64,000 nucleotides of DNA from NCBI GenBank assembly GCA_044374175.1, contig JBILPB010000001.1:13889-77888 (forward strand). The letters run 5' to 3'. Shown here one piece after another: positions 2,556-56,189 of the stretch (its first letter is position 1; each line of letters opens with the position of its first letter). Source of the DNA: Bacteroidia bacterium (lineage in GTDB: Bacteria > Bacteroidota > Bacteroidia > UBA4408). A program made the position numbers and the translations under genes. The notes under the pieces are model-generated. The model worked only from the letters and a program-made list of their open reading frames with translations, made no database searches and had not been told where the DNA came from.

Positions 2556-3599
2556 ATGAAATTAGTAGTACTTTACGAAGAATTAGCTGGATATTTTATA
2601 TCGTCCATAGAGCATTTTGCCCAAACTACAAAGATAGAGGTTGTTATTATCCATAAATCATCAAATGCAGTTGCGCCCTTTAAATTAGAAACATCACAAT
2701 ATATACAACTCAAAAACAGGGATGAAATAAGTGAGCAACAATTGTATGATTTTGTAAACAAACTGCAACCTAATTATTTATTTTGTGGTGGATGGGCGCA
2801 TAAACCATACTTAAAAATTTGTAAAAACTTTAAAGGAAAAATTCCGGTTGCCGTAGGATTTGATAACCAATGGATAGGCAATCTTAAACAAAGATTATCG
2901 GCCATTTATGCACAGTTTTATTTTAAAAAACTATTTGATAAAGCCTTTGTACCCGGCACTTTGCAAAAACAATTTGCACAAAAAATAGGCTTTAAAGAAA
3001 AGGATATTTTATTAGGAGCCTACTGTTGCGATTATAATTTATTTTCAGGAATCTATACTAATACCGTAAACAAAAAACAAGAGCATTTTCCAAAGGTATT
3101 TTTATATACAGGAAGGTATTCACAAGAAAAAGGAATTACCGATTTGTGGGATGCTTTTGTTGAATTAGGTGACGATCATGATTGGGAACTGTGGTGTGTT
3201 GGTGTTGGGGCAATTCCTCCCATAAAGCATCCAAAAATAAAACATTTTGGTTTTGTGCAACCTAAAGAATTAGCACCCATCATTGATAAATCTGGTGTTT
3301 TTATTTTACCTAGTCATTTTGAGCCTTGGGGGGTAGTAGTGCATGAATATGCTGCCGCTGGTTTTCCAATTTTATGTGCTACAAAAGTTGGTGCCAGTGA
3401 AGTGTTTTTAGAAAATAATATCAACGGCTTTTCATTTTCACCAGGCAATAAAAGTGAAATCAAAAATGTGCTCAATAAAATCATTCAAATGGAAGAAAGT
3501 AAACTCATCGAAATGAGCATAAAAAGTCATCAAATCTCTACAAAAATTACCAATGAAACTTGGACTGCCACCTTCAAACAGTTGTTTGGTATTAAGTAA
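2556..3599 (+). CDS. Glycosyltransferase, group 1 (GT4 family)
   Basis: The C-terminal region reads EPWGVVVHEYAAAGFPILCATKVGASEV, which is the typical EX7E-type GT1 motif region. It is divergent from the GNAT/deacetylase pair. Confidence 0.75.
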   Translation: MKLVVLYEELAGYFISSIEHFAQTTKIEVVIIHKSSNAVAPFKLETSQYIQLKNRDEISEQQLYDFVNKLQPNYLFCGGWAHKPYLKICKNFKGKIPVAVGFDNQWIGNLKQRLSAIYAQFYFKKLFDKAFVPGTLQKQFAQKIGFKEKDILLGAYCCDYNLFSGIYTNTVNKKQEHFPKVFLYTGRYSQEKGITDLWDAFVELGDDHDWELWCVGVGAIPPIKHPKIKHFGFVQPKELAPIIDKSGVFILPSHFEPWGVVVHEYAAAGFPILCATKVGASEVFLENNINGFSFSPGNKSEIKNVLNKIIQMEESKLIEMSIKSHQISTKITNETWTATFKQLFGIK

Positions 3600-9270: not shown

Positions 9271-9657
9271 TTAACGCTTGCTGAATTGGAATCTCTTACG
9301 AGCTTTCTTTTGACCAGGCTTTTTACGTTCAACCATTTTAGGATTACGAGTTAATAAACCTAAAGGCTTTAACGTTAAACGATGCTCAGCATTAATTTCA
9401 ACCAAAGCTCTAGAGATTGCTAATCTGGCGGCCTCAGCTTGTCCTGTAATTCCTCCGCCATCAACATTAACTTTAACATCATAGTTCCCTGAAATGTTAC
9501 AGGCAGTAAAAGGTTGTACTACTTTTGACTGAAGCGGGCCAGTTTTAAAGTATTCTTTGTAGTCTTTATTGTTAACTGTAATTACACCGCTTCCAGATTG
9601 CACATATACACGTGCTACAGCAGTTTTTCTTCTACCAATGGTATTTGTTACTTCCAT
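9271..9657 (-). CDS. rpsI: 30S ribosomal protein S9
   Basis: GGGITGQAEAARLAISRAL is present and the protein ends with the basic tail ...KKARKRFQFSKR. Confidence 0.9.
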   Translation of the reverse strand: MEVTNTIGRRKTAVARVYVQSGSGVITVNNKDYKEYFKTGPLQSKVVQPFTACNISGNYDVKVNVDGGGITGQAEAARLAISRALVEINAEHRLTLKPLGLLTRNPKMVERKKPGQKKARKRFQFSKR

Positions 9658-33961: not shown

Positions 33962-34151
33962 AACAGGAGCAATAAGGTTGGCGAGGTCCGATAGCTCGGA
34001 CGCAGAACCTTTGACAGAATTCGAGAGATTTTTATTGCGGCATTCTAGTTGGAAAAACATACTCAAGTTTTAATAAAAGTAGCCTTGTAAGAAAAACAAA
34101 GGTGCTAATTAAATAAACTTACGATTATTAGTAGCTTTGCATTTTTAAAAA

Positions 34152-54744: not shown

Positions 54745-54781
54745 AGAAGCCTTATTCAGAGATGCATAAGGCTTTTTTCTA
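54745..54781 (+). terminator. Rho-independent terminator after the TonB-dependent receptor gene, overlapping the era stop
   Basis: The sequence is gaagccttattcagagatgcataaggcttttttct. The stem is aagccttat/ataaggctt, followed by a T-run. Confidence 0.65.
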
Positions 54782-55660
54782 CTCTTCATACCCAAATTGC
54801 TTCAACATATAATCATTATTCCTCCAATCTTTTTTCACTTTTACAAAAAGTTCGAGGAATACTTTTTTATCGAAAAACTTTTCAATATCAATACGGGCTT
54901 GGGTGCCAACGCGTTTTAAGCCAGAACCTTGATGGCCAATAATGATGCCCTTTTGTGATTCGCGCGACACAAATATTAATGCTCTAATTTTTAAAATGGT
55001 AGGTTCATCTTTAAAACTCTCGACATACACCTCGCAGCTGTAGGGTATTTCTTTGTCGTAGTTGATTAATATTTTTTCACGAATAATTTCGCTCACAAAA
55101 AACTTTTCTGGTCGGTCGGTTAATTGATCTTTATCGTAAAAGGCAGGAGAATCGGGCAATAGCGCAACAATTCTTTTGGTAAGGTAATCAGTATTAAATT
55201 TTTCTAAGGCAGATATTGGAATGATTTCTGCTTCGGGCAAAAGAGCAGCCCAAGCAGCACTAGTTGTTTCAAGTTCTTCCGGTTTTATTAAATCAATTTT
55301 ATTAAGTAATACTACAATTTTACTTCCCGATTTTTTCAGCTTTTCCATCAACTCATCTTCTAATTGATCTTTGCTTGTAACATCAATAATCAATAAAAGT
55401 ACATCGGCATCTGATAAAGCAGTATATACAAACTTCATCATTGATTCGTGCATTTTATAATGTGGGGTGAGTATGCCAGGCGTATCAGAATAAACAATTT
55501 GATGTTCATCAGAACTTACAATACCTAATATACGATGGCGAGTGGTTTGTGCTTTAGAAGTAATGATACTCAATTTTTCACCTACTAAAATGTTCATTAA
55601 AGTAGATTTTCCCGCGTTTGGTTTTCCAATAATATTTACAAATCCTGCCTTGTGTGCCAT
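54779..55660 (-). CDS. era: GTPase Era
   Basis: The G1 motif appears as GKPNAGKSTLMN, with DTPG and NKID motifs. A C-terminal KH domain is present. 293 aa. Confidence 0.9.
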   Translation of the reverse strand: MAHKAGFVNIIGKPNAGKSTLMNILVGEKLSIITSKAQTTRHRILGIVSSDEHQIVYSDTPGILTPHYKMHESMMKFVYTALSDADVLLLIIDVTSKDQLEDELMEKLKKSGSKIVVLLNKIDLIKPEELETTSAAWAALLPEAEIIPISALEKFNTDYLTKRIVALLPDSPAFYDKDQLTDRPEKFFVSEIIREKILINYDKEIPYSCEVYVESFKDEPTILKIRALIFVSRESQKGIIIGHQGSGLKRVGTQARIDIEKFFDKKVFLELFVKVKKDWRNNDYMLKQFGYEE

Positions 55661-55687
55661 GTTTAATTTTTTACAAAGTAACGATTA

Positions 55688-56040
55688 ATATGGAAATGAT
55701 GTGAAACCTCGACTGAAATGTGTAATGAGACATTAAGGGCTTTTGAAGATTTGAAGCTATGTGTTGGTTGGCGAGGACACCAACCAATTACCAATTACCA
55801 AAATTCTTAACCCATGTAAACGAATCTCTTTAAATTTGAAGCTATGTGTTGGTTGGCGAGGCTGCAAGCAATTATCAAATATGGAAATGATGTGAAACCT
55901 CGACTGATATATGTAATGAGACATTAAGGGCTTTTGAAGATTTGAAGCTATGTGTTGATTGGCGCGGACACCAACCAATTACCAATTACCAAAAACGATG
56001 TCCGAGGTTTGGCGTCCTCGCCAACCTTTTTTTTGATCTG
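55688..56040 (+). repeat. Tandemly duplicated ~115-nt non-coding element (copy A 55688-55802, copy B 55879-55993), a partial third module at 55838-55862, and a closing plus-strand terminator hairpin at 56009-56038
   Basis: Copies A and B are near-identical (tatggaaatgatgtgaaacctcgactga...gggcttttgaagatttgaagctatgtgttggttggcgaggacaccaaccaattaccaattaccaaaa). Each ends in an 8-bp hairpin (ttggttgg / loop cgaggaca / ccaaccaa). Downstream, ggtttggcgtcctcgccaacc followed by tttttttt forms a terminator-like structure. A degenerate fourth module lies at 56128-56160 (gttgtt-gaggacaag-aacaac). Confidence 0.7.
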
Positions 56041-56189
56041 TTTGCATTAATTTCGACTTATATTAAACTTGATAATTTATGTATTTTTACTGCAACAATC
56101 AATAGTTGGCAAAACACTTTTACTTAACTTGAAGATGTAGGTTGGTTGTTGAGGACAAGAACAACTTACAGAAACTTGAGGATATAGGA

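Follow-up and report, generated by a model that had tools for sequence, protein, structure and literature searches.

A probable BIME-like cluster of RAYT-associated REP hairpins between a sensor phosphatase gene and era in a Bacteroidia bacterium

What fills the unusually repetitive DNA upstream of era in this genome, an RNA gene or mobile repeats? Within the window (the whole 64-kb stretch of DNA that was analysed), the gap at positions 55661 to 56189 (~530 nt) lies 3' of a PP2C/SpoIIE sensor phosphatase gene and 5' of era. A first-pass annotation of the sequence had described it as a duplicated hairpin module, either a candidate structured small RNA (sRNA) or a repeat family. REP elements, small repeated palindromes, owe their spread to a RAYT transposase, and we conclude, with a probability of roughly 85%, that the gap is a BIME-like REP cluster of a family that accompanies RAYT (TnpA_REP, HuH-Y1) genes across the Bacteroidota. 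The cluster comprises a palindrome of ~24 to 30 nt in five copies, four direct and one inverted. On this reading, the era-upstream modules are an ordinary kind of bacterial repeat and not a new structured RNA. Of the two initial alternatives, the repeat family was the correct one, and it can now be named as a RAYT-associated REP family of Bacteroidota.

Anatomy of the gap between the phosphatase gene and era

The features of the gap and its flanking genes are as follows.

54779 to 55660, minus strand: era, encoding GTPase Era (293 aa; Pfam MMR_HSR1 and KH_2), the gene downstream of the gap
55661 to 55686, minus strand: era-proximal leader with a promoter-like box, TTACTTTG, at 55674 to 55681
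55687 to 55803, plus strand: module 1, consisting of an A-part (55687 to 55750) and a B-part with the hairpin TTGGTTGGCG-AGGA-CACCAACCAA (55764 to 55787) and a tail of 2.7 ACCAATT units
55804 to 55833, no strand: unique 30-nt linker from module 1 to the partial copy
55834 to 55877, plus strand: partial module B', with a degenerate REP at about 55849 to 55871
55878 to 55994, plus strand: module 2, 97% identical to module 1, with the hairpin TTGATTGGCG-CGGA-CACCAACCAA at 55955 to 55978
55996 to 56036, minus strand: inverted REP, the most canonical of the window, reading GGTTGGCG-AGGA-CGCCAAACC-TC-GGACA on the minus strand
56136 to 56170, plus strand: diverged REP with a GTAG foot, GTAG-GTTGGTTGTTG-AGGA-CAAGAACAAC-TTAC, which keeps the AGGA loop
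56190 to 59471, minus strand: sensor phosphatase gene (1,093 aa; Reg_prop/Y_Y_Y and SpoIIE [PP2C] domains), upstream of the gap and co-directional with era

The phosphatase gene had initially been called convergent with era, which is wrong, as both genes are encoded on the minus strand. Other parts of the first-pass annotation held up. The gap contains no long open reading frame with coding support, and it is not a CRISPR array, because the spacings are irregular (85, 106, and 187 nt) and the would-be spacers are repeats too. The two near-identical copies that had been noticed correspond to a 117-nt direct repeat (55687 to 55803 and 55878 to 55994; 97% identity; 191-nt spacing). Its 64-nt A-part had no match elsewhere in the window or in the ~1 Mb of fetched family loci and therefore belongs to the era locus only. 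From this uniqueness, we infer that the mobile unit is the hairpin and that the 117-nt module is a REP reiterated together with its local flank. TRF did not report the 191-nt duplication; it found solely a 7-nt microrepeat (ACCAATT, 2.7 units) that makes up the 3' tail in each full module (55783 to 55801 and 55974 to 55992) and that may have arisen by slippage of a drifted REP tail motif.

The hairpin core of the family reads GGTTGGCG-NGGA-CGCCAACC, and the canonical unit is GT-GGTTGGCG-NGGA-CGCCAACC-AC-GGACAA. A covariance model of the family (R1) was run across the whole 64-kb window with filters off, and all significant matches fell within the gap. Module 1 was matched at 55756 to 55795 on the plus strand (38.7 bits; E = 1e-8), and module 2 was matched at 55947 to 55986 on the same strand (31.5 bits). 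Both had been credited with a perfect 8-bp stem and a conserved loop; this is true of module 1, but in module 2 the stem reads ttgAttgg, which leaves a plus-strand A.C mismatch, and the loop (cgCgg) has a changed base. As single-stranded DNA (ssDNA), the module 2 hairpin folds at -2.5 kcal/mol, no better than shuffled sequence. The proposed partial third module was confirmed at 55834 to 55877, where the first 28 nt are identical to the full modules. Its hairpin is below the R1 threshold in the window and folds no better than shuffles (ssDNA, -3.4 kcal/mol), whereas the version in L001, one of the compared loci, scores 27.1 bits.

The inverted copy (R1, 27.2 bits, minus strand, 55996 to 56036) had been read as a classical rho-independent terminator. 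A hairpin preceded by TGTCCGA (56006 to 56026) and followed by T8 (56027 to 56034) is indeed present on the plus strand, but it is not a plain terminator: the hairpin is an inverted copy of the repeat (18 nt, 94%; R1, 27 bits), and its GGACA tail is common to the copies that flank RAYT genes. The diverged fourth module was also borne out; it lies at 56136 to 56170 with its AGGA loop retained, matches R1 at 56137 to 56173 on the plus strand (17.5 bits; E = 0.012), and has an ssDNA fold z-score of -3.6. In L002 and L003, its 3' foot is CTAC, giving a "double foot."

Overall, stems in the window are 8 to 10 bp long, and loops are 4 to 8 nt long. Two of the five hairpins are decayed. The ssDNA folds of the window hairpins are weak, ranging from -2.5 to -8.4 kcal/mol, compared with -13.4 kcal/mol for a RAYT-adjacent copy. 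The canonical REP foot (guide) motif next to the hairpin is GT[AG]G; within the window, GTAG occurs only in the fourth copy, and the GGACA tail occurs only in the inverted copy. Foot and tail of modules 1 to 3 read TGTT...AATTACC. The direct copies carry TT..AA and TTACCAA rather than the canonical GT..AC foot and GGACAA tail; canonical family copies read GT-GG...CC-AC plus GGACAA.

Dispersed copies had been suggested at 33983 and at about 32070. These are only word matches of 11 to 13 nt, and R1 detects neither. The sequence at 33974 to 34012, AAGGTTGGCGAGG[TCCGATAGCTCGG]ACGCAGAACCTT, has a 13-mer in common with the REP and complementary closing ends; to judge from these features, this site, undetected by R1, might be a family hairpin with an insertion nested in its loop. 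No RAYT homolog was found in the 64-kb window.

The hairpin family accompanies RAYT genes

A scan of one genome per species with the pattern GTTGGTTGGCGAGG-N2-4-CCAACCAA produced four matches (L009, L010, L011, and L012). L012, a GTDB metagenome-assembled genome (MAG) contig, represents the same locus in a relative that is ~90% identical. In L010 and L011, from other Bacteroidota MAGs, the hairpin occurs in tandem intergenic modules with periods of ~188 and 143 nt, respectively. A conserved syntenic era leader was considered for these two arrays and rejected, as their flanks encode SPFH, a T9SS-tail protein, and a methyltransferase. The remaining genome, a Verrucomicrobiae MAG (L009), has a single match to the pattern at 3001 to 3024.

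Metagenomes scanned with GGTTGGCGNGGACNCCAACC yielded at least 120 stretches. Low-GC contigs (GC, 0.30 to 0.47) have an identical 20-mer core within unrelated flanks, arranged as singletons, as inverted doublets ~14 nt apart inside larger palindromes, as 34-nt arrays, or as 144-nt tandem repeats. A contig may have the hairpin at several loci; one of 151 kb carries 10 copies in 34-nt tandem arrays, seven in L063 and three in L040. The repeated unit of these arrays (L063, 165 to 286 and 2102 to 2328; L040, 2478 to 2681) is the REP hairpin plus CTCCGGATTTTTTT, and at several loci the 34-nt arrays are bounded by the conserved flanks atcctgttcatcccatacc ... atctgtgaaatc; their appearance is that of a composite mobile element in which the count of internal REPs varies. 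In L071 (8932 to 9240) and L021 (~9440 to 9500), half-hairpin units, GGGACGCCAACCACGGACA, recur right after full REPs. Core or near-core matches were also seen in three viral contigs (L133 to L135; GC, ~0.65), the flanks of which are identical to one another. High-GC matches outside the Bacteroidota (L009 and L133 to L135) are probably coding or due to chance, and the high-GC matches of the metagenome and viral scans were rejected as coding or chance matches.

The family is extragenic, with 25% of the low-GC copies lying in a long stop-free frame compared with 83% of background bases. When 50 diverse copies were aligned, 92.6% of the cells were paired and 43 cells were changed on both sides, a degree of covariation reached by none of 500 shuffles. 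The foot pairs vary freely (outer pair, GC, UA, CG, or AU; next pair, UA, CG, or AU). Orientation of the genes around family copies is near random (25 co-directional, 11 convergent, and 9 divergent) and offers no support for a dedicated terminator role. The GGTTGGCG/CGCCAACC variant was not found in the supplements of two REP catalogues (Quentin et al. 2018; Di Nocera et al. 2013) or in the searchable text of the papers. The survey defines a REP family, GT-GGTTGGCG-NGGA-CGCCAACC-AC-GGACAA, together with its RAYT, that has an identical 20-nt core in many Bacteroidota lineages.

Six-frame translations of all fetched loci were searched for the HuH...W...YxxxNP motifs given for Bacteroidetes TnpA_REP subclasses (Quentin et al. 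2018, PMC6006769). One open reading frame was recovered, at L071 8414 to 8920. It matches the NCBIfam REP-associated tyrosine transposase model (REP_Tyr_transpos) with an E value of 9e-19 and 67.8 bits, which is below the curated cutoff of 80, and it aligns with E. coli TnpA_REP (PDB 4ER8) across the HuH and Tyr motifs. Among its 1,069 homologs, some are named RayT by JGI and some come from Chitinophagales and Mucilaginibacter. The Pfam model Y1_Tnp did not match the L071 protein at an E value of ≤0.1; several of its homologs carry a precomputed PF01797 match. On the basis of the NCBIfam match, the PDB alignment, and the homolog names, the predicted product of L071 8414 to 8920 is a RAYT.

This gene is preceded by two inverted hairpins and followed by three direct hairpins, the latter within a tandem repeat of 144 nt in which the 3' end of the RAYT gene (last ~85 nt) is duplicated as well. 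Four further RAYT homologs from independent genomes have the same flanking arrangement, inverted upstream and direct downstream, so that this REPtron organization was present in five of the five genomes examined (L071, L136, L139, L141, and L142). The stems co-vary between the genomes.

L136, Chitinophagales MAG: stem GGTTGGCG / CGCCAACC
L141, Bacteroidota MAG: stem GATTGGTG / CACCAACC
L142, metagenome scaffold: stem TGTTGGCG / CGCCAACA
L139, Mucilaginibacter jinjuensis: stem GTTGTTGGTG / CACCAACAAC

The M. jinjuensis stem is that of the Runella slithyformis REP assigned to RAYT subclass 2.6, GCCG-GTTGTTGGTG-TTAT-CACCAACAAC (Quentin et al. 2018, PMC6006769, supplement). Other REPs of subclass 2.6 have a 9- to 10-bp stem and a 3- to 4-nt loop, often TCCT (PMC6006769). 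These stem differences bear on the fourth copy in the window, for which a compensatory stem change had been taken to argue for a conserved structure. Both sides of that stem are indeed changed, but an RNA reading does not follow, because the same co-variation separates REP subfamilies with different RAYT genes. Since it tracks RAYT-linked subfamilies, the co-variation appears to reflect maintenance of the hairpin in a mobile DNA palindrome and not RNA function.

Local amplification and strain polymorphism at the era locus

An identical Era protein is encoded on nine metagenome contigs, most of which break 57 to 400 nt upstream of era, inside the modules; the REP cluster accounts for these assembly breaks. 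L003 has a single module, because of a deletion of 191 nt or else a collapse in assembly, and is without the linker that bears a plus-strand TAAATTTG box in the window. The partial third hairpin, decayed in the window, has a perfect 8-bp stem in L001. L002 and L012 contain a 127-nt insertion inside module 1. A constrained RNA gene would not differ in this way in module number, hairpin integrity, and insertion content.

The 127-nt insertion (L002, 3877 to 4003; L012, 1 to 77) is located between window positions 55731 and 55732. It folds strongly as RNA (-39.4 kcal/mol) and has inverted-repeat-like ends, TACCAATGTGA...TCACATCGGTA; one contig begins within it and another breaks at the site. Within the ~1 Mb of fetched loci, the insertion, perhaps a MITE, had no second copy.

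The family hairpin was absent upstream of era in four relatives, whose gaps are as follows.

L144, Era identity 96%: neighbour, WbqC gene; gap, 87 nt
L145, Era identity 91%: neighbour, amino-acid permease gene; gap, 50 nt
L146, Era identity 84%: neighbour, an apparent tRNA gene (read from sequence), then CrcB; gap, 310 nt
L147, Era identity 74%: neighbour, the same PP2C/SpoIIE gene; gap, 26 nt

Because these gaps are free of REPs, the 530-nt gap of the window is best seen as a lineage-specific expansion, and the REP cluster accounts for its length here relative to 26 nt in L147. The era-upstream junction is a synteny breakpoint among these close relatives, with downstream genes partly conserved.

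The window, L144, L145, and L146 share a conserved box, cgTTACTTTGTAaaaaa, 10 to 15 nt ahead of the era ATG; on the minus strand of the window it can be read as TTACTTTGTA at 55672 to 55683. The Bacteroidota -7 promoter element is TAnnTTTG, and by resemblance the conserved box is likely such an element. If it is the era promoter, era would have a very short leader, and the REP cluster would lie upstream of the promoter, in the 3' region of the phosphatase gene.

Competing explanations, proposed origin, and known systems

The initial proposal, that the modules are a structured regulatory RNA, would take the form of either a plus-strand sRNA of ~190 to 350 nt that ends at 56006 to 56034 and lies antisense to the region of the era promoter, or a cis leader of era. 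On the plus strand, the hairpin with its T8 conforms to the consensus of an intrinsic terminator, and an exact -7 box of the Bacteroidota type (TAAATTTG) occurs once, at 55831 to 55838; the minus-strand hairpins reach 10 bp when G.U pairs are counted, and the fold of module 1 has a z-score of -2.7. We nevertheless consider an RNA improbable. An Rfam scan, which the first-pass annotation had suggested, gave 0 matches in the whole window at the gathering threshold (Rfam 15), and in the gap only chance-level matches appeared at a permissive threshold. Whole-block folds are unremarkable (385-nt plus-strand block, z-score of -0.96; 529-nt minus-strand gap, z-score of -1.8), and the TAnnTTTG match, ~190 nt upstream of the hairpin and T8, occurs at chance frequency. 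The "terminator" itself is a REP copy, two of the hairpins are decayed, the number of modules differs from strain to strain, the linker with the putative promoter is absent from L003, and the element is missing upstream of era in L144 to L147. As for a cis leader, the conserved promoter-like box lies downstream of the cluster, which places the modules probably outside the era leader. The structured-sRNA reading was thus left unsupported, and the block is essentially of a known mobile repeat class, an outcome that had been named at the outset as telling against it. A related scenario, in which the REP cluster has been exapted so that a short plus-strand RNA runs from near the TAAATTTG box (55831 to 55838) to the inverted REP and T8 (56006 to 56034), seems to us a long shot. 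If true, an RNA of REP-derived hairpins, antisense through the gap, would influence era read-through or the stability of the phosphatase transcript, and REP/BIME amplification would have created a new sRNA gene in a phylum without Hfq, ProQ, and CsrA.

It is very unlikely that the 117-nt module is a MITE or insertion sequence fragment mobilized by a DDE transposase and bounded by terminal inverted repeats and target-site duplications. The region is repeat rich and breaks metagenome assemblies, and some strains have the separate insertion with TIR-like ends inside module 1. Yet no terminal inverted repeats were found at the module ends, the A-part is confined to the era locus in the window and the ~1 Mb of family loci, and what the genomes have in common is the hairpin alone, which goes with RAYT genes and not with DDE transposases. 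The same confinement of the A-part, along with the local character of the 191-nt-period duplication, would fit an ordinary stretch of intergenic DNA, terminator hairpins included, that was duplicated in tandem at this locus and has no mobile-element origin. We regard that explanation as extremely improbable, as the identical 20-nt core turns up in numerous unrelated genomes and settings and on either side of RAYT genes, and the stem sequence of an ordinary terminator would not stay the same from one genome to another. Chance as the source of the matches in other genomes is contradicted by the multicopy arrays and the REPtron arrangement.

For the REP cluster, we propose the following origin. 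By analogy with E. coli TnpA_REP, a RAYT would recognise the hairpin and a short foot guide on ssDNA and would cleave and rejoin DNA, seeding REP copies in intergenic regions; the analogy draws on the biochemistry of the E. coli enzyme as cited in PMC6006769. Once two or more REPs are neighbours, unequal crossing-over or replication slippage reiterates a REP together with adjacent nonrepeat DNA. At this locus, as the anatomy and the strain polymorphism show, the reiterated DNA is the 64-nt A-part, giving a duplication with a 191-nt period that grows or shrinks between strains. REP clusters are described as forming by tandem reiteration of REPs with flanking DNA (Di Nocera et al., PMC3733652), and the periods of 191 nt in the window, 188 nt in L010, 143 nt in L011, and 144 nt in L071 fit that description. 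Ageing copies would then acquire stem mismatches, and their guide and tail motifs would drift, from GGACAA to TTACCAA. Their weak ssDNA folds and drifted tail suggest that the window copies are ageing in this way, and they are probably no longer good RAYT substrates. By analogy with REPs elsewhere, any local effect would be passive, with the copies serving as 3' stabilisers or partial terminators on the phosphatase transcript, upstream of the era box.

A REP/BIME cluster should therefore replace the speculative sRNA call in the annotation of this gap. That outcome will not surprise specialists; the useful products are the correct annotation and the family model R1, which could help in masking or annotating these repeats and in following how RAYTs and REPs co-evolve outside the Proteobacteria.

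Comparison with known systems places the cluster among REP elements. As a rho-independent terminator, it would have the expected plus-strand GC-rich hairpin followed by T8, but the hairpin is an inverted copy of a repeat family, no plus-strand gene lies upstream of it or ends at it, and, read on the strand that encodes the flanking genes, the run becomes an A8 ahead of the hairpin. With the REP/BIME/REPIN and RAYT (TnpA_REP) systems of E. coli and Pseudomonas, the family shares a short extragenic palindrome; copies that occur singly, as inverted doublets, or in tandem clusters along with flanking DNA; an HuH-Y1 gene flanked by inverted and direct copies (REPtron); and stems that co-vary with the transposase lineage. 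It differs from the enterobacterial and pseudomonad REPs in its unrelated sequence, with a near-perfect 10-bp stem, a 4-nt NGGA loop, and a GGACAA tail, and the window copies differ further in being degenerate, with no RAYT seen within 64 kb. A further likeness is to the REPs of TnpA_Y1 subclass 2.6 of Bacteroidetes (PMC6006769), which agree in host phylum, 10-bp stem, and 4-nt loop and in a RAYT of ~166 to 180 aa with NH[LIV]H and YIHxNP motifs. The GGTTGGCG/CGCCAACC variant is absent from the PMC6006769 catalogue, and the RAYT of M. jinjuensis, which has the Runella stem, is homologous to the RAYTs flanked by that variant. By this resemblance in motifs and size, rather than by phylogeny, the RAYTs of the family would be placed in subclass 2.6.
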